Part shown: piece by piece, positions 6,459-18,912 of the stretch
Position numbering within the stretch: the stretch's first letter is position 1
Layout of the letters: every line of letters begins with the position of its first letter
Source of the DNA: Chiloscyllium plagiosum
Taxonomy: Eukaryota
NCBI RefSeq assembly: GCF_004010195.1
Contig: NC_057718.1
Span: 74,891,324-74,911,323 of the forward strand
Length of the DNA stretch: 20,000 nt
Direction of reading: 5' to 3'
The notes under the pieces: generated by a model
Database searches by the model: none
Seen by the model: only the letters and a program-made list of their open reading frames with translations
Told to the model about the DNA's origin: nothing
Made by a program: the position numbers and the translations under genes

Positions 6459-7362
6459 GGTATGGTTAGTAAGTTTGCAGATGACACCAAAATAGGTGGT
6501 TTTACAGACAGTGAAAAAGATTATCTTATAGTACAAGGGGACCTTGATCAGATGAGTCAATGACCTGAACAGTGGCAGATGGAGTTTAATTTATATAAAC
6601 ATGAAGTGTTGAATTTTGGTAAGGCAAACCAGAGCAGGATGTATAGAGTTAATGGTTGGACCCGGGGGAGAGTTGCTGAACAAAGAGCCTGAGGGGTGCA
6701 GGTGCACAATTCCTTGAAAGTGGAGTTGCAGATAGAGAGGGTGATGAAGAGGATGTTTGACACTCTTATTTTCATTTGTCAGAACACTGAGTACAGAAGT
6801 TGGGATGTTATGTTATGGCTGTACTATTGGTGAGACTACTTTTAGAATACTGCATACAATTCTGGTTGCCCTTCTATAGGAAGGATGTTGTTAAACTTGA
6901 AAGAGTGCAGAAAAGATTTACAAGGATGTTGCCATGGTTAGATGGTTTGATTTAAAGGGAGAGGCTGATTAGACTGATTAGGCTGGTGCTTTTCTCCCTG
7001 TGGCATCAGAGGCTGAGGAGTGACCTTGTAGAGATTTATAAAATCATGAGGGGTATGGATAGGGTGAATTTTCCCAGGGTGGGGAAGTCCAAAACCAGAG
7101 GGCATTGGTTTAAGGTGAGAGGAGAAACATTTAGAAGGAGCCAAAGTGATGGTATGTGTATTGAATGAGCTGCTGGAGGAAGTGGTGGAGCTAGTACAAT
7201 TACAACCTTTAAAAGGCATCTGAATAGTTATATGAATAGGGAAGATTTAGGGGGATATGGGCCAAATGCTGGCAAGAGGGTGTAGGTCAGATTGGGATGT
7301 CTGGTTGGCAGATAAGTTGGACTGAAGATTCTGGTTCCATGCTGTATAACTCTATGAATCTA
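6459..7362 (+). mobile_element. CR1 LINE 3' half (continuation of 4392-4583) through the 3' tail
   Basis: It reads GMVSKFADDTKIGG..WQMEFN..LEYCIQFW..RVQKRFTRMLP..RSDLVEIYKIMRG. The tail CCATGCTGTATAACTCTATGAATCTA lies near 7337-7362. Confidence 0.9.
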
Positions 7363-7856: not shown

Positions 7857-8592
7857 TTTGGGGAGTGTTGCTGAACAAAGAGAGCTTGGAATGCAGGTTC
7901 AGAGTTCCTTGAAAGTTGAATCCCAGGTAGATAGGATAGTGAAGAAGGCATTTGGTACGCTTACCTTTATTGGACAGAGCATTGAGTATAGCATTTGGGA
8001 GATCATGTTGCGGCTGTACAGGACATTGGTTAGGCCATTTTTGGAATATTGTGTACAATTCTGGCCTCCCTCCTATCAGAAGGCTAATGTGAAACTTGAA
8101 AGGGTTCAGAAAAAATTTACAAGGCTGTTGCCAGGGTTGGAGGGCTTGAGCTACAAGGAGAGGCTGAATAAGCAGGAGTTGTTTTCCCTGGAGTGTTGGA
8201 GGCTGAGGGGTGACTTTATAGAGGTTTATAAAAGCATGAGAGGCATGAATAGGATAAATAGACAAGGTCTTTTCCCTGAGGTGGGGGAGTCCAGAACAAG
8301 AGGGCATAGGTTTAGGCTGAGAGGGGAACAATTTTAAAGGGACCTAAGGACCAGCTTTTTCACGCAGTGGGTGGTGCGTGTATGGAATGAGTTGCTAGAG
8401 GTAGTGGTGGAAGTTGGTACACTTCCAATATTTAAAAGGCACCTGGATGGGTATATGAATAGGAAGGTTTAGAGGGATATGGGCTAAGTGCTGGCAAATG
8501 GGACTAGATTAGATGGGATATCTGGTCGGCATGGACGAGTTGGACCAAAGGGTCTGTTTCTCTGCTGTACATCTCTATGACTCTTTGACTCC
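7857..8592 (+). mobile_element. 5'-truncated CR1 LINE (ORF2 C-terminus, 3' UTR and tail)
   Basis: ORF 7825-8337 reads EQRELGMQV..LYRTLVRPFLEYCVQFW..LERVQKKFTRLLPG..RLRGDFIEVYK..TRGH. The tail ends AGGGTCTGTTTCTCTGCTGTACATCTCTATGACTC. Confidence 0.9.
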
Positions 8593-8689
8593 ATATAATA
8601 AAGATAAAATAGTCATGGTGGGTAGGGTAATGGAGAAATTGATACGGACCAGACTGGGCCTTCGCATAAATCCCACATTAACAAGGTTC

Positions 8690-8714
8690 GGGGGAGTGGG
8701 TGGGGTGGGTGGGG
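8690..8714 (+). other. G-quadruplex-type motif (five G tracts with 1-3 nt loops)
   Basis: GGGGG AGT GGG T GGGG T GGG T GGGG, read directly. Folding is not tested. Confidence 0.7.
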
Positions 8715-8986
8715 TGCAGAAAAGATTTACAAGGATGTTGCCATGGTTAGAGGGGTAGAGTGGATCTTTGCTAATAATAAAATTTAGGGAAAAGTGTGAA
8801 TACATAAACATTGGATTCATTAGTGCAGTAGCAGAGTCCCTTTCAGAATGGAGTGTGTAAAATCATTCATCGGTAGATGAGATGGTTTAGAAAATTTTAA
8901 TGGATGTGCTCCGAAGTGGACAGTCTACCTATTAATATTATTATCTTCCAGATAAGAGCTTAGCATGAAATAATTAGGGGATACAC

Positions 8987-9299
8987 GGTGGGCGGCACGG
9001 TGGCACAGTGGTTAGCACTGCTGCCTCACAGCGCCAGAAACCCGGGTTCAATTCCCGACTCAGGCGACTGACTGTGTGGAGTTTGCACATTCTCCCCGTG
9101 TCTGCGTGGGTTTCCTCCGGGTACTCCGGTTTCCTCCCACAGTCCAAAGATGTGCAGGTTAGGTGAATTGGCCATGCTAAATTGCCCGTAGTGTTAGGAA
9201 AAGGCGTAAATGTAGGGGAATGGGTGGGTTGCGCTTTGGTGGGTCGGTGTAGACTTGTTGGGCCAAAGGGCCTGTTTCCACACTGTAAGTAATCTAATC
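8987..9299 (+). mobile_element. HE1-like tRNA-derived V-SINE, full length
   Basis: It has an A box TGGCACAGTGG, a B box GGTTCAATTCC, a V-domain-like GTGTGGAGTTTGCACATTCTCCCCGTGTCTGCGTGGGTTTCCTCCGGG, and a CR1-like tail GGGCCTGTTTCCACACTGTA followed by TAATC repeats. Confidence 0.92.
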
Positions 9300-9793
9300 A
9301 TATAGATCATATCAATTTGTTTTTGGTAGAGATCCTTTGGTAAAAGCTTACTACAGTAAGCTTTCCTTTGAGTACTTGAATGTCTTACATACAGGGAGAA
9401 GGTCGTTCATTAAGGTTGATATTTCAGAGGAATTTCAGCAAGTCTCATGACATTAAATTTGGCCATCAGAAATAAATTTTAATTCAGGGGACCTGGCGTA
9501 TTTCAAAAGAGAAATACAGAAAATGTGGAAAGGTCTGGATAAGGCAGTGATGGGAAAACAATAATTCAATAACATGGTAACAAATAATTAGAATGCATCC
9601 CTCTAATTGGCATTGATCACACCCTTATAGAATCTGAACAAATAATAGAAAATAATGCGACACCATGCATTTCATATACACATATGTTGGAACGTTATGT
9701 GGTTCAGATTATGGTGGATGAAGAGCTGACTGAATATGAACAAAGTGACACAGAGTTGTAGGACAAGGTTATTTGCCATAGTTCACAGCTTAT

Positions 9794-10097
9794 ATTAGAT
9801 TAGATCACTTACAGTGTGGAAACAGGCCCTTCGGCCCAACAAGTCCACACTGACCCACAACCCACCCAGACCCATTCCCCTACATTTATCCCTTCACCTA
9901 ACACTACGGGCAATTTAGCATGGTCAATTCACCTAACCTGCACATTTTTGGACTGTGGGAGGAAACTGGAGCACCCAGAGAAAACCCACGCAGACACGGG
10001 GAGAATGTGCAAACTCCACACAGTCAGTTGTCTGAGGCGGGAATTGAACCCAGGTCTCTGGCGCTGTGAGGCAGTAATGCTAACCACTGTGCCACCC
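9794..10097 (-). mobile_element. HE1-like tRNA-derived V-SINE, inverted relative to 8987-9299
   Basis: The reverse complement matches the 8987-9299 copy along its length. The (TAATC)n tail appears as ATTAGATTAGA at 9794-9804. Confidence 0.92.
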
Positions 10098-10818
10098 ACT
10101 GCCATGACAGAGTAATAAATGGAGAAATAGCATGATCATGGCAAGTGCAGGGAAAGCCTCTGATAACTGCAAGCACTGGCTAAGTATATAAGTTGAGGGA
10201 TAGGATTTAAGGAGGTGAACATAGAGGAGGTGAACATGGCCCTAGGAAAAGATCGAATCTTGCAAAAAGAGTTCCGATCACTGGAGGGGGAGATCTTATA
10301 ATCAAAATCCAGAACAAGATAGGAAGAGGAGATAAAGGTTGTAGTCTGACAAGAACAATGGAACAAGCTGGAATATCATGAAAAGTAGAAACACTTATGA
10401 TCAAGAGATTTTATTGACTACAACCAAATTAGACAGTAAATTGATAAAAAGAAGACAAACAAAATAGTTGGAAAGCTGGAATTTGATATGCATACCAAGG
10501 TACAAGACATGGATAGCCAGTCTCAAGATAGGGATACATATTTAATAATTTTTTTGAGTTGAAGATTGTGATCAGCACCTCCACAATTTTGACTTTCCTT
10601 CACTCAGCTACCTACTTACATCTGATCTGGACTGTCTGACTTATCTTTTCTCTCCAAGATTTTGAACACTTCCTCTAATCTACTTTTATCTTGCACTTTA
10701 TCTCACAAATTCCTTGTTTTCTACAGGCTTGGAAAACTCCTCTCTCTTGGTAAATACTGATAAAACGTACTCATTTATTTCCTTAGCCATGCTTTTTGCC
10801 CCTACTAATAAATCTCTA

Positions 10819-11002
10819 ATGAAATTAGAAATTGCTGGAGAAGCTCAACAGGTCTGGCAGCATTTTTAGATAAAAATCACAGCTAACGTGTCACGTTCAG
10901 AAATCCACAAATGTTGCCAGGTTTGCTAAGTTTTTCTGAAAATTTCTGTTTTTGTTTCTGATTTCCAGCATCCATAACTCTTTTGAATGGCTTTTATTTA
11001 TC
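10819..11002. mobile_element. Short palindromic Penelope-type non-autonomous insert, degraded, with a 12-bp TSD
   Basis: Imperfect inverted arms lie at 10827-10865 and 10909-10947. The left arm resembles the PLE terminus at 11237-11266 (GCTGGA.AAGC.CA.CAGGTC.GGCAGCA). AATAAATCTCTA occurs at both 10807-10818 and 11003-11014. Confidence 0.7.
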
Positions 11003-11280
11003 AATAAATCTCTATTTTGCTCCAAATGAGACCCCTGGTCTACTTATAGGGATTCTACAGTTTCTCCACCGAAACAAGAATTTCATATTCCACTGTATGC
11101 TTGGTATTAATTTACACAGCTTTATATTGTTTTTGCTTTTCTGATTTCCTTCTTCACTTCTTCGGATTTTTCTATGCAGTCAGATTATTCCTTATATTAT
11201 CACATTATATATGATATTTAATATCTGGATTAGTGGTGCTGGAAAAGCACAGCAGGTCAGGCAGCATTCGAGGACCAGTA

Positions 11281-11318
11281 AAATCGACGCTTCGGGTAAA
11301 AGCCCTTCATCAGGAATA
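11281..11318 (-). ncRNA. Minimal hammerhead-ribozyme-like motif in the PLE 3' terminal region, with a mutated core (GAAG in place of GAAA)
   Basis: The minus strand reads ATTC CTGATGA A GGG CTTTTA CCC GAAG CGTC GATT. Confidence 0.6.
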
Positions 11319-11643
11319 CAGGCAGAGTGCCTGAAGGGTGGAGAGATAAATGAGAGGAGTGTTGGGGTGGGGAGAAAGTAGCATAGAGTACAATAGGTGA
11401 GTGAGGGAGAGGGTGAAGGTGATAGGTCAGGGAGAAGGGTGGAGTGGATAGGTGGAAAAGATAGGCAGGTAAGACAAGTCATGGGGCCAGTGCTGAGCTG
11501 GAAGTTTGGAACTGGGGTGAGGTGGGGGAAGGGGAAATGAGGAAACTGTTGAAGTCCACATTGATGCCCTGGGGTTGAAGTGTTCCGAGGCGGAAGATGA
11601 GGCGTTCTTCCTCCAGGCGTCTGGTGGTGAGGGAGCGGAGGTG

Positions 11644-12465
11644 NNNNNNNNNNNNNNNNNNNNNNNNNNNNNNNNNNNNNNNNNNNNNNNNNNNNNNNNN
11701 NNNNNNNNNNNNNNNNNNNNNNNNNNNNNNNNNNNNNNNNNNNNNNNNNNNNNNNNNNNNNNNNNNNNNNNNNNNNNNNNNNNNNNNNNNNNNNNNNNNN
11801 NNNNNNNNNNNNNNNNNNNNNNNNNNNNNNNNNNNNNNNNNNNNNNNNNNNNNNNNNNNNNNNNNNNNNNNNNNNNNNNNNNNNNNNNNNNNNNNNNNNN
11901 NNNNNNNNNNNNNNNNNNNNNNNNNNNNNNNNNNNNNNNNNNNNNNNNNNNNNNNNNNNNNNNNNNNNNNNNNNNNNNNNNNNNNNNNNNNNNNNNNNNN
12001 NNNNNNNNNNNNNNNNNNNNNNNNNNNNNNNNNNNNNNNNNNNNNNNNNNNNNNNNNNNNNNNNNNNNNNNNNNNNNNNNNNNNNNNNNNNNNNNNNNNN
12101 NNNNNNNNNNNNNNNNNNNNNNNNNNNNNNNNNNNNNNNNNNNNNNNNNNNNNNNNNNNNNNNNNNNNNNNNNNNNNNNNNNNNNNNNNNNNNNNNNNNN
12201 NNNNNNNNNNNNNNNNNNNNNNNNNNNNNNNNNNNNNNNNNNNNNNNNNNNNNNNNNNNNNNNNNNNNNNNNNNNNNNNNNNNNNNNNNNNNNNNNNNNN
12301 NNNNNNNNNNNNNNNNNNNNNNNNNNNNNNNNNNNNNNNNNNNNNNNNNNNNNNNNNNNNNNNNNNNNNNNNNNNNNNNNNNNNNNNNNNNNNNNNNNNN
12401 NNNNNNNNNNNNNNNNNNNNNNNNNNNNNNNNNNNNNNNNNNNNNNNNNNNNNNNNNNNNNNNNN
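11644..12465. other. Assembly gap (822 N)
   Basis: N run. The long ORFs that span it are artefacts. Confidence 1.
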
Positions 12466-13800
12466 TGTAGAGGAGACCGCTTCGGGAGCAACGGATACAA
12501 TAAATGATATTGGTGGATGTGCAGGTAAAACTTTGATGTATGTGGACGGCTTCTTTAGGGGCTTGGATAGAGGTGTGGGGGGAGGTGTGGGCACAGGTTT
12601 TACAGTTCCTGCGGTGGCAGGGGAAAGTGCCAGGATGGGAGGGTGGGTCGTGGGGGGGGCGTGGACCTGACCAGGTAGTCACGGAGGGAACGGTCTTTGC
12701 GGAAGGCGGAGAGTGGTGGGGAGGGAAATATATCCCTGGTGGTGGTGTCTGTTTGGAGGTGGCGGAAATGTCGGCAGATGATTTGCGAAGGTTGGTAGGG
12801 TGGAAGGTGGGCACCAGGGGCGTTCTGTCCTTGTTGCGGTTGGTGGGGTTGGGTCTGAGGGCGGAGGTGCGGGATGTGGATGAGATGCGTTGGAGGGCAT
12901 CTTTAACCACGTGGGAAGGGAAATTGCAGTCTCTAAAGAAGGAGGCCATCTGGTATGTTCTGTGGTGGAACTGGTCCTCCTGGGAGCAGATATGGTGGTG
13001 GCGGAGGAATTGGGAATACGGGATGGCATTTTTGCAGGAGGTAGAGTGGGAAGAGGTGTAATCCAGGCAGCTGTGGGAGTCAGTGGGTTTCTAAAAATGT
13101 CGGTGTCAAGTCGGTCATCATTAATGGAGATGGAGAGGTCCAGGAAGGGGAGGGAGGTGTCAGAGATGGTCCAGGTAAATTTAAGGTCAGGGTGGAATGT
13201 GTTGGTGAAGTTGATGAATTGCTCAACCTCCTCGCGGGAGCACGAGGTGGCACCAATGCAGTCATCAATGTAGTGGAGGAAGAGGTGGGGAGTGGTGCCT
13301 GTGTCATTACTGAAGATGGACTGTTCTACGTAGCCATAGTTGGGCCCATATGGGTGCCCATGGCTACCCATTTTGTCTGGAGGAACTGGGAGGATTCGAA
13401 GGAGAAATTGTTAAAGGTGAGGACCAGTTCGGCCAAACGAATGAGAGTGTCGGTGGAAGGGTACTGTTGGGGATGTCGGGAGAGGAAGAAACGGAGGGCT
13501 TGGAGTACTAATCATGTCAAGTGTCTCCAATAGGCCTAGATGGAGGCCAAGTGCAAACATCTTCAAACATCCCCTTCTCCACTTGCAGCAGGGTGTATAT
13601 AGATCCAGATTAACTTAATTTCAAGTGTTTAATCACCCTCTGACCCACAACGCTGGGGTGGAAGAAAGTCATTCTTGATCCCAAGGGGTTGCCTAAGAAG
13701 ACGTCATATCTCCTAACTTTCATCTATTTATGTGTGGCTGTTTGAAAAACAAACAGATATGGAGCTTAAGGAAGTTAAACTTCCAAATGTGTTTGTATAT

Positions 13801-14572
13801 CAAGGATCAGTTTTGGGACCATTGCTGTTTGTCATTTTTATAAATGACCTGGAGGAAGGGCTAGAAGGTTGGGTGAGCAAGTTTGCGGATGATACGAAAG
13901 TCGGTGGAGTTATTGACAGTGAGGAAGGATGTGTCAGGTTACAGCGGGATATAGATAAGCTGCAGAACTGGGCAGAAAGGTGGCAAATGGAGTTCAATGT
14001 AGCTAAGTGTGAGGTGATTCACTTTGATAAGAGTAACAAAAAGATGGGGTACTGGGCAAANNNNNNNNNNNNNNNNNNNNNNNNNNNNNNNNNNNNNNNN
14101 NNNNNNNNNNNNNNNNNNNNNNNNNNNNNNNNNNNNNNNNNNNNNNNNNNNNNNNNNNGTATGGTAGGAAGATCGTATGAAGAAAGGCTGAGGCAGTTGG
14201 GGCTGTTTTCATTGGAGAAAAGAGGGTTTGGGGGTGACTTGGTAGAGGTGTACAAGATGATTAGGGGTTTAGTTAGGGTTGACCATGAGAACCTTTTTCC
14301 ACGTATGGAGTCAGCTATTACGAGGGGGCATAGCTTTAAATTAAGGGGTGGTAGGTATAGGACAGATGTTAGGGGTAGATTCTTTACTTAGCGAGTCGTG
14401 AGTTCATGGAATGCCCTGCCAGTAGCAGTGGTGGACTCTCCCTCTTTATGGGCATTTAAACGGGCATTGGATAGGCATATGGAGGATAGTGGACTAATGT
14501 AGGTTAGGTGGGCTTGGATCGGCGCAACATCGAGGGCCAAAGGGCCTGTACTGCGCTGTATTTTTCTATAAC
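13801..14572 (+). mobile_element. Well-preserved 5'-truncated CR1 LINE containing a 98-N gap (14061-14158)
   Basis: It reads [60 protein letters not shown]. The tail is GGGCCTGTACTGCGCTGTATTTTTCTA. Confidence 0.93.
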
Positions 14573-14832: not shown

Positions 14833-15487
14833 AGGAAGGCAAAGTAGGATTAGGAAAAAGGGATAGCGTTGTTACAGGAGGTAGGTTGGGAGGAGGTGTA
14901 GTCGAGGTAGCTGTGGGAGTCGGTGGGCTTGTCGCACATGTCCATGGTTAGTCGGTTGCCAGAGATGGAGATGGTGAGATCCAGGAAGGAGAGGGACGTG
15001 TCCGAGTTGGTCCAGGTGAATTTGAGGTCGGGGTGGAAGCTGATCGTGAAGTTAGTGAACTGTTCAATCTCCTCGTAGGACCATGAGGTGGCGCCGATAC
15101 AGTTATCGAAGTAACAGAGGAACAGGTGGGGGGTGGTGCCAGTGTAGGTGTGGAAGATGGACTGTTCCACGTACCCGACAAAGAGGCAGGTATAGCTAGG
15201 TCATGGCTAGCCCATGGCTACCCCTTTGGTTTGGAGGAAGTGGGAGGACTGAAAGGAGAAGTTGTCAAGGATAAGGACCGGTTCAGACAGGCGGATGAGG
15301 GTGTTGGTGGAAGAGTACTGGTTGGGACGACATGAGAGGAAGAAACCGGGGGCTTGGAGGCCTTTGTCATGGAGGAATGATGTGTACAGACATTGGATGA
15401 CCATGGTGAAGGTGAGGCGTAGGGGGCTGGGGAAACAAAAGTCTTGGAGGAGGTTAAAGGCATGGGTGGTGTCCCGAATGTATAAGG
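14833..15487 (-). mobile_element. Second, more decayed Penelope-like RT fragment
   Basis: It reads LDNFSFQSSHFLQTKGVAMG, EQSIF..PHLFLCYFDNCIGA..FHPDLKFTW..SFLDL..KPTDSHSYLDYTSS. It is homologous to 13000-13505. Confidence 0.88.
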
Positions 15488-16030
15488 AGTAGAAGTTGGG
15501 AAGTTATGTTGCAGTATACAGTACATTGATGAGGCCGCAATTGAAGTATTGTGTTCAATTTTGGTCATCTTGTTATAGGAAAGATGTAATTAAACTGGAA
15601 AGAGTGCAGAGGAAATTGACAAGGATGTTGCCTGGATTCAATGGTTAGTGTTATAGGGAGAGGTGGGACAAGCGAGGAGATTTGATCACGACAGGTATGG
15701 CTACTGTGAATGCACTCAGTCTTTTTCCAGGGTTGGGGAAGTGAGGACTAGAGGATATCAGTTTAAGGTTAGAGGGGAAAGAATAAAAGGGAACCTGAGG
15801 GCAATGCTTTTACACAGAGGATGGTACACATATGGAATGAGTTGTCAGTGGAAGTAGTTGAGACAACATTTAAAAGGCATTTGGACAAATACATGGATAG
15901 GAAAGTTTTAGAAGGATTTGGGCCAAGTGCAAGGAATGAGGTTAGCATGGATGGACACTTTGGTTGGCATGGACCAGTTTGGGCCAATATTGCCTGTCTC
16001 TGTGCTGCAGGGGTCTATGATTCTATGACT
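15488..16030 (+). mobile_element. CR1 3' fragment with internal deletions and tail
   Basis: It reads YSTLMRPQLKYCVQFWSSCYRKDVIKLERVQRKLTRMLPG..RTRGYQFKVRG. The tail ends CTATGATTCTATGA. Confidence 0.85.
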
Positions 16031-16257: not shown

Positions 16258-16399
16258 CATGTTATGGACAGTTTCATGCTGTAAATTTTAGACTTTAATC
16301 TCAGCAAACTAAAGAAACAAGTAGCTGACAAACAAATCACTGCAAAAATATTTGAGAAAATTAATTGGTTTGTTTCATGTCACTTAATAGTTCATGAAT

Positions 16400-16595
16400 T
16401 TAAAAATCACACAACACCAGGTTATCGTCCAACAGGTTTAATTGGAAGCACACTAGCTTTCGGAGCGACAATCACCTGATGAAGGAGCGTCGCTCCGAAA
16501 GCTAGTGTTTTTCAATTAAACCTGTTGGACTATAACCTGGTGTTGTGTGATTTTTAACTTTGTACACCCCAGTCCAACACTGGCATCTCCGAATC
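16400..16595 (+). mobile_element. 196-bp palindromic PLE-derived non-autonomous insert with a perfect 13-bp TSD
   Basis: It has ~70-bp near-perfect inverted arms at 16400-16469 and 16489-16557. The TSD ATAGTTCATGAAT lies at 16387-16399 and 16596-16608. Confidence 0.85.
16473..16507 (+). ncRNA. Minimal type-I hammerhead ribozyme motif with an intact core
   Basis: CAC-CTGATGA(16476-16482)-A-GGAGC-GTC-GCTCC-GAAA(16497-16500)-GC-TA-GTG. Helix I is CAC/GTG, helix II is 5 bp, and helix III is reduced to the AGCT palindrome. Confidence 0.7.
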
Positions 16596-17487: not shown

Positions 17488-18912
17488 TAGAACATAGAAC
17501 ATAGGATATACAGAGAAGTACAGGACCTTCGGCCCTCGATGTTGCGCCGACCTATGGAACCGATCTGAAGCCCACCTATCCTACACTATTCCATTTTCAT
17601 CCATATGCCTATCCAATGACCATTCAAATGCCCTTAAAGTTGGCGGGTCCACTCCTGTTGCAGGCAGTGCGTTCCATGCCCCTACTACTCTCAGACTAAA
17701 GAAACTACCCCTGACATCTGTCCTATATTTATCACCCCTCAATTGTGCAAGCCATCACCATCCGAGGAAAAAGGCTCTCCCTGTCCACCCTGTCTAACCC
17801 TCTGATTATCTTATACGTCTCAATTAAGTCACCGCTCAACCTTCTTCTCTCTAACGAAAACAGCCTCACATCCCTCAGCCTTTCCTCATAAGACCTTCCC
17901 TCCATACCAGGCAACATCCCAGTGATCCCTTAAAGTTGGCGGGTCCACTCCTGTTGCAGGCAGTGCGTTCCATGCCCCTACTACTCTCAGACTAAAGAAA
18001 CTACCCCTGACATCTGTCCTATATTTATCACCCCTCAATTTACAGCTATGTCCCCTTGTGCAAGCCATCACCATCCAAGGAAAAAGGCTCTCCCTGTCCA
18101 CCCTGTCTAACCCTCTGATTATCTTATACGTCTCAATTAAGTCACCGCTCAACCTTCTTCTCTCTAACGAAAACAGCCTCACATCCCTCAGCCTTTCCTC
18201 ATAAGACCTTCCCTCCATACCAGGCAACATCCCAGTAAATCTCCTTGGAACCCTTTCCAAAGATTCTATATTCTTCCTTATACTGCAGTGACCAGAATTG
18301 CATGCAATACTCCAAGTGCGGCTGCACCAGAGTTTTGTTCAGCTGCAGCATGACCTCGTGGGTACGAAACTCAATGCCTCTACTAATAACAACCCTATCA
18401 ACCTGGATGGCAACTTTCAGGGATCTATGTACATGGACACCGAGAGCTCTCTGCTCATCTACACTACCAAGAATCTTACCATTAGCCCCGTACTCTTATT
18501 CCTTTGGTGCTTCCAAAGTGAATCAACTCACACTTTTCCATATTAAACTCCATTTGCCACCTCTCAGCCCAGCTCTACAGTTTATCTGTGTCCCTCTGTA
18601 ACCTGCAACATCCTTCAACACTACCAACAATTCCACTGACCTTGGTGTCATCTGCAAACCCATCATTCTACGCCCTCATCCAGGTCATTTATAAAAATGA
18701 CAAAGAACAGTGGACCCAATACAGATCTTTGTGGTACACCACTAATAATTGAACTCCAGGATGAACATATCCCATCAACCACCACCCTCTTATCTTTCAG
18801 CTAGCCAATTTCTGATCCAAACTGCTAACTCACCTTCAATCCTATGCCTCCGTATTTTGTGCAATAGCCTACCGTGGAGAACATTATCGAATGCATTACT
18901 GAAATCCATATA
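17488..18912 (-). mobile_element. CR1 LINE 3' half (RT to tail) with an internal tandem duplication
   Basis: The (TAGAACA)n tail is at 17488-17505. The minus strand reads [52 protein letters not shown]. Confidence 0.92.
17631..18236. repeat. Near-identical ~300-bp tandem duplication within the CR1
   Basis: 17631-17923 (293 bp) and 17927-18236 (310 bp) are joined by a GAT linker. They differ by one substitution and a 17-bp indel. Confidence 0.95.

Follow-up and report, generated by a model that had tools for sequence, protein, structure and literature searches.

The closest described relatives of the locus reported here are the Ty1/copia retrotransposons of the GalEa clade, a Branch 1 lineage that the available parts of two sources give as comprising GalEa1, CoRex1-2, Cico1, Zeco1 and Olco1 (PMC3587641, PMC5445492). 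Integrase upstream of reverse transcriptase (RT) is also described for Gmr1-type Gypsy elements in the accessible text of three papers (PMC3587641, PMC6238403, PMC2774666).

Sharks are among the known hosts of GalEa. The available parts of a survey of 263 metazoan genomes report copia in five chondrichthyans (PMC11889832): its Additional file 3 gives 719 copia copies and seven GalEa clusters for Scyliorhinus canicula and 210 copies and three clusters for Carcharodon carcharias, GalEa being the sole clade given for these two classifiable sharks, and unclassified copies are listed for Stegostoma (1), Chiloscyllium (1) and Rhincodon (2). Copia is also reported from the whale shark in the part available of a further source (PMC8455134). 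The original prediction, that a copia fossil in the present DNA might belong to a poorly catalogued shark lineage, was not borne out on this point, given the GalEa elements published for catshark and white shark (PMC11889832). GalEa is already known in sharks and many marine animals, and the relic can be no more than a new and older family of it.

The window analysed here is a stretch of 20,000 nucleotides from Chiloscyllium plagiosum. Judged from its sequence, positions 8594-10511 very probably represent a decayed fragment of the integrase region of a GalEa copia retrotransposon. This relic of about 2 kb is broken, and is a genuine but ordinary genomic fossil. A hidden copia pol fossil had been predicted in the A-rich spacers around two SINEs, and the collinear alignment of 8594-10511 to intact Ty1/copia polyproteins agrees with it; every one of the predicted motifs was found at its place in plus-strand translation. 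The parts of the relic and its later insertions are as follows.

8594-8699, plus strand: decayed integrase catalytic core, between the first and second catalytic positions (profile positions 563-584 at 8594-8659)
8700-8763, plus strand: short later insertion, a G-rich stretch and about 45 nt of the window's LINE (8714-8759 is 93% identical to 6905-6950)
8764-8986, plus strand: second half of the integrase catalytic core, with several frameshifts and stops (8767-8905 is profile 597-644; hmmsearch domains at 8780-8905 and 8832-8861); motifs FAN..FRE.CE..NI...SPFQNGVC..NH..VDEMV
8987-9299, plus strand: SINE 1, a tRNA-headed V-SINE that interrupts a conserved motif of the integrase (its arms are complementary to SINE 2 at 93% and 91%)
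9301-9607, plus strand: remainder of the integrase core, then a long helix and a first C-terminal domain of SH3-like fold (phmmer query, profile 670-786); motifs SYQFVFGR, LNVLHTGRRSFIK, GDLAYFKR, WKG, GSDGK, HG and RMH
9608-9793, plus strand: probable variable linker between two barrels, assigned from position and A-rich composition
9794-10103, minus strand: SINE 2, of the family of SINE 1 (inverted repeats relative to SINE 1)
10108-10188, plus strand: first half of a second SH3-like barrel, unbroken (profile match, hmmsearch domain 889-927); motif W...I.ASAGKA....HWLSI
10353-10511, plus strand: candidate spacer ahead of RT, with about 10 residues from the start of the RT region (LESW..FDMHTKVQD; subclade profile)

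Single-frame translations of the three spacers matched nothing in Pfam (0 of 9 frames), and an indexed homologue search with an 87-residue piece returned nine candidates, none of them significant. An exhaustive phmmer search of 1.84 billion proteins with 9298-9558, stops written as X, retrieved 50 proteins at E≤1e-3 (best, 1.8e-9). Because this segment was the query, its own match to the relatives is partly by construction, and the independent test lies in the remaining pieces. These were scored by frameshift-aware alignment against a profile of 86 full-length relatives and compared with dinucleotide shuffles, each per-piece score being restricted to the expected part of the profile.

In six frames of the whole 20-kb window, hmmsearch found four profile domains, all on the plus strand, within 8780-10221 and in profile order. 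The chain across 8594-9607 scored 96 bits, versus a mean of 16.6 and a maximum of 22.6 in 60 shuffles; 79 of its 198 aligned residues are the residue preferred by the profile, and it contains six stops and eight frameshifts, the exact sites of some frameshifts varying with alignment parameters. Two pieces outside the query were each unmatched in 500 shuffles: 8767-8905 (41.8 bits) and 10108-10188 (27.2 bits, or 31.3 bits and again 0/500 with a subclade profile). Three others, weak alone, lay at their expected positions: 8594-8659 (17.4 bits, 2/500), 9543-9607 (17.1 bits, 1/500) and 10363-10482 (16.2 bits, 5/500). Profile positions increase along the window, from 563-584 through 597-644, 670-786 and 890-916 to 933-974. 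A scan of 39 tiles on two strands, with the first SINE and the N gap excluded, gave three scores of 78 above 24 bits, all inside the relic; the best elsewhere was 23.7. Pfam came back empty in single frames, but the profile-based, frameshift-aware signal was far above chance.

Between the two barrels, 9608-9793 could not be aligned (288 of 500 shuffles scored as high), and 9545-9800 set against the whole profile found its best match elsewhere, non-collinear and by chance. This stretch is 35% A, as in the other pieces, and the corresponding linker in a structural model of the relative P0009 has pLDDT <50. The best pairwise identities between the relic and its relatives were 76-80 of 195 residues. 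Words of 9300-9790 occurred in 16 of the 24 sequencing-run rows listed, with shares of 0.27-0.67 for one organism (A) in two studies and 0.17 for another (B), too small a share to count as evidence; no RNA run was among the listed matches. Rfam returned for 8500-11200 a single tmRNA fragment, which we discarded as a chance match.

The left end of the relic (8594) adjoins the 3' tail of a LINE, and the right end fades between about 10510 and 10560. At 10353-10511 the subclade profile scored 22.7 bits, with none of 500 shuffles as high but a shuffled maximum of 22.5; two alignments compete further right, one of them over 10482-10559 at 16.6 bits. RVT_2 starts at profile position 977, the whole-family alignment stops at 974 and the subclade profile extends it by about 10 residues. 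The start of an RT that had been predicted here is therefore plausible on sequence grounds and barely present: at most about 10 residues would fall inside the RVT_2 region, with no Pfam match to an RVT_2-type RT. An RVT_2 search of the relic, proposed as a test, is unusable on the present copy, whose RT is almost gone. To the right, 10541-11200 is T-rich; the copia profile does not match it, and its one match elsewhere in the window is of 32 nt.

The structure of the element could be read from its intact relatives. All 50 phmmer matches fit one family profile, and the Gypsy RT motif occurred in none. Of 12 matches scanned, picked mostly for length, nine carry rve then RVT_2, two rve alone and one neither. 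A wider search seeded by the relative P0008 yielded 1045 relatives; among the 120 listed, RVT_2 was present in 118, rve in 117 and RVT_1 in none. Named relatives come from Mytilus edulis, Nymphon striatum, Hydractinia and Bolinopsis, in keeping with the predicted resemblance to copia-like polyproteins of aquatic invertebrates. One protein from Nymphon striatum, annotated as 'DNA polymerase epsilon subunit 2' (P0121), holds a whole GalEa-type pol (rve, RVT_2) and is probably a fused gene model. On viral contigs we found three distant integrases with 28-30% identity, which were left out of the analysis. Two integrase ORFs on such contigs, L001:4365-6048 and L002:3-975 (30% identical to the copia core), are ones that we take to be integrases of Polinton-like viruses.

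The 86 full-length relatives place integrase upstream of RT and RNase H by motif order in 80 cases. Their gag and protease carry CX2CX4HX4C (86) and D[TS][AG]C (74); their integrase carries HHCC (85; HX4HX30CX2C in 80) and D..D35E (82); their RT carries [KR]ARL[VI][AV] (81), D[VI]K.A[YF] (82) and HVDD (84); and their RNase H carries [TS]RPD[IVL] (73),.DA[SA] (83) and AD[CVASGP]LTK (49; ADCLTK in 22). In Branch 2 of copia, to which Hydra, CoMol and Mtanga belong among others, the protease is instead of the DSGA type and RNase H carries DADW and ADIFTK; among the same 86 relatives these occurred in two, none and none, respectively. The motifs of the relatives agree with a published table of six metazoan GalEa elements, as available in its Additional file 5 (PMC5445492), apart from a D-D spacing of 53-59, versus 49-54 in that table. 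These diagnostic protein motifs were read in the relatives, and none of the regions concerned is readable in the relic.

For the primer-binding site (PBS) we used 80 of the 238 metagenome stretches that encode relatives. The GalEa PBS, TGGTAGCAGAGC, was found with at most one mismatch in 22 of the 80 loci (exact in 12) and was absent at that threshold from 58, many of which are short contigs and some of which carry variants. Of eight loci checked for variant primer sites, three more had one. The variant sites at L016:4402, L009:413, L030:192 and L038:454 comprise one that starts TGGTATCA and three altered GalEa sites; several other intact relatives have no TGG-type site upstream of gag. The locus L004, third best of the 80 when compared with the relic, has TGTTAA at base 1 and TTAACA directly before a PBS at 161, the pattern given for Zeco1 and Olco1 in the available literature on these elements. 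LTR ends of the form TGT...CA were seen in this one locus of 13 checked for direct repeats, the others having no whole 5' LTR end.

We built a FastTree phylogeny on 224 columns of integrase alignment. Its 76 rows were the relic, 44 loci whose ORFs reach at least 900 residues, and 31 proteins chosen because they were nearest, first-found or named. The tree was rooted at its midpoint, supports are those of FastTree, no named GalEa reference is among the rows, and sampling is biased toward the relic's subclade, since P0008 seeded the search for relatives. The relic lies inside a subclade of 16 proteins (support 0.999) on a very long branch of 1.26 substitutions per site; its position within the subclade has a support of 0.37. 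This subclade in turn sits within a clade (0.908) that includes loci with a PBS as well as the proteins from Mytilus, Nymphon and Hydractinia. The 16 proteins are known from protein alone, and the PBS evidence comes from other loci. The integrase phylogeny with invertebrate elements that had been suggested nests the relic among PBS-bearing relatives. The GalEa clade is defined on RT and RNase H, lost in the relic, so that membership is assigned through integrase homology.

A first alternative is that the relic is a Branch 1 copia outside GalEa proper, from a CoDi-like or unnamed sister clade, and so an uncatalogued lineage. Its nearest relatives are unnamed metagenome and run-assembly proteins, with no shark protein among the matches; identity to them is just 39-44%; and named GalEa elements were not among the sequences compared. 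However, the subclade of the relic carries KARLVA, D[IV]KAAF, HVDD, [TS]RPD and SDAS, as do Olco1 and Zeco1 in the parts of the literature available, the tree sets the relic among loci whose PBS is exactly that of GalEa, and low identity is expected after such decay. We consider this alternative very unlikely and retain the assignment to GalEa.

What remains of the GalEa copy is only part of an element. Elsewhere in the window, a tile scan with the copia profile found no remnant of gag, protease, RT core or RNase H; there is no LTR pair, and the GalEa PBS has no match at two mismatches or fewer, that part of the element not being preserved here. The relic starts past the first of the integrase's catalytic positions, and none of the catalytic acidic residues is readable in it. 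Because of this, the relic is inert, with no coding function today. That the sequence has been domesticated or still works, as a gene derived from copia or as a regulatory element, could be argued from the roughly 200 codons that align despite their age and from the frameshift-free run at 9301-9534; set against the six stops and eight frameshifts in 8594-9607, the absence of a readable catalytic residue and three insertions, such a function is extremely improbable.

These insertions provide the order of events. The flanks of SINE 1 both fall at profile position ~670, the motif having been split by the insertion. SINE 2 lies within the variable linker, with collinear pieces on either side; the linker measures 103 codons without the SINE, versus 86-205 in relatives (n=73), a spacing that adds little to the case for later insertion. 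The two SINEs are 91-93% alike, compared with an amino-acid identity of about 40% between the relic and its best relatives. As read from the sequence, the copia relic is older than both SINEs, in accord with the order of insertion proposed originally, given the motif split by SINE 1 and the collinear flanks of SINE 2. Target-site duplications were found for neither SINE; around the short LINE-derived piece, the same 6-mer at 8694-8699 and 8758-8763 is a candidate 6-nt duplication, possibly by chance in such G-rich sequence. Of the insertion coordinates proposed earlier, those of SINE 1 were kept; a better fit is ~8700-8763 for the LINE piece and 9794-10103 for the second SINE.

The SINE tail is common to the LINE ends in the window (repeat family D15). 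We take the SINEs to be of the HE1 type and the LINE that fills the window to be of the CR1/HER1 type, which would fit a shark or ray as host; an HE1/HER1 pair of SINE and LINE is given for sharks and rays in the available part of one source (PMC3747384). The window is a patchwork of LINE pieces (with RVT_1 at 13717-14061), SINEs and an assembly gap. At 17631-18236, inside a LINE fragment, there are near-perfect duplications (114 nt at 100% and 181 nt at 99%), which reflect either tandem duplication in the very recent past or an error of assembly. Two related RT-like fragments on the minus strand, 11192-13533 and 14850-15589, are 78-81% alike, one being cut by an 820-base N gap; 12679-13410 had no match in Pfam. 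Both fragments are presumably of the Penelope type. Lastly, 16397-16560 holds a 51-nt inverted repeat (94%, 62-nt spacer), shaped like a small non-autonomous element.

The history of the element may be outlined from these observations. An active relative would be transcribed from its 5' LTR, as established for the clade, and would produce a Gag-Pol polyprotein of zinc knuckle, protease, integrase, RT and RNase H, seen here in intact relatives alone. A tRNA-Met would prime reverse transcription at TGGTAGCAGAGC, and the DD35E integrase would insert the cDNA. The present copy would have entered the germ line long ago and decayed neutrally; it has lost both ends and carries its six stops and eight frameshifts within about 200 alignable codons. 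Two SINEs and the short LINE piece arrived later, as the split motif shows for SINE 1 and the collinear flanks suggest for SINE 2.

Integrase upstream of RT had been offered as a copia hallmark. The relatives do carry rve then RVT_2, but order alone is not diagnostic, Gmr1-type Gypsy elements having the same one. Because of this shared order, we base the copia assignment on homology to RVT_2-bearing relatives. A Gypsy element of the Gmr1 type, or an integrase-only element, would account for the domain order, and the relic's GD..YFKR..WKG module resembles by eye the GPY/F module, which the available part of one source gives as absent from copia integrases (PMC2774666). The best Foldseek matches of a relative are moreover retroviral integrases, although such matches reflect which integrases have solved structures. 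The 120 listed relatives, with RVT_2 in 118 and RVT_1 in none, and the 50 matches, of which all fit the copia family profile and none has the Gypsy RT motif, leave this reading a negligible likelihood. Chance patterns in A-rich spacer DNA, which might explain the empty single-frame Pfam and indexed searches and the three weak pieces (1-5/500), are equally negligible given a chain of 96 bits versus a shuffled maximum of 22.6, two non-query pieces at 0/500, collinear order and nothing comparable among the other 75 tile scores.

The GalEa-type integrases share one further feature. A second SH3-like barrel follows the integrase C-terminal domain (CTD) in 82 of the 86 relatives; its sequence resembles the first, and it is probably a duplicate of the CTD. 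The barrels lie at residues 226-269 and 333-387 of P0009, at L004:2863-3066, and at 9490-9607 and 10108-10188 of the window, the relic retaining the second as its 'AGKA...WL.I' motif. The second barrel models at pLDDT 92.6, and its 42 matches (42/42) are within the GalEa-type family alone. No Pfam family passed E 0.005 and no PDB sequence matched below E 0.4; Foldseek gave no match at E≤0.001, and all Atlas matches were <0.9. We considered a Tudor identity and did not adopt it. No GalEa C-terminal second barrel was found in the literature searched, a scope that leaves out most subscription papers.

We put forward, as a speculative and rather unlikely proposal, that a second C-terminal barrel, hitherto undescribed, is present in GalEa integrases throughout the clade, as a CTD duplicate that converged on a Tudor-like shape and might steer integration by binding DNA or chromatin, and that the relic may represent a shark family distinct from the catshark and white shark clusters. 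The significance of the relic itself is modest, and the second barrel is the only lead worth following: tandem SH3-like barrels behind the integrase core, in a superfamily described as having no GPY/F module, offer a concrete domain for asking how the most widespread copia clade of marine animals chooses its target sites. Repeat-dense fish DNA holds unannotated GalEa relics that Pfam and LTR-pair searches do not reach; species scored with one or two copia copies in the available counts (PMC11889832) may hide an older wave, and nested SINEs supply a relative date for such relics.

Compared with GalEa elements as described in the parts of the literature available, the intact relatives agree in domain order, in PBS, in LTR ends (TGT...CA) and in the motifs of the knuckle (C2C4H4C), protease (D[TS][AG]C), integrase (HX4HX30CX2C and DD35E), RT (KARLVA/HVDD) and RNase H ([TS]RPD and.DAS), whereas the relic itself retains neither LTR nor PBS and lacks protease, RNase H and the core of RT. 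With the published shark clusters it shares the clade and, as a candidate judged by SINE and LINE types, the host group; those clusters are LTR-bounded and were obtained via LTRharvest, whereas the relic is end-less, a sort that the authors, in the available text, admit may be missing (PMC11889832). Compared with retroviral integrases (HIV-1, SIV, PFV, MVV, RSV and STLV), the part of P0009 that matches 9301-9607 models as a helix and a barrel and aligns to the catalytic core domain (CCD) and SH3-like CTD; P0009 aligns over ~260-295 columns at E ~1e-11 (Foldseek) with 13-19% identity, and the relatives add the second barrel past a disordered linker. Royal-family domains are known on other retrotransposon integrases, as the chromodomain of the copia element CoDi-A in the accessible part of one source (PMC2774666) and the Tudor domain of Gypsy-10_Ec32 (PMC12477816). 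If the proposal is true, the second barrel would be a copia counterpart of the chromodomain, retained from ctenophores to sharks.
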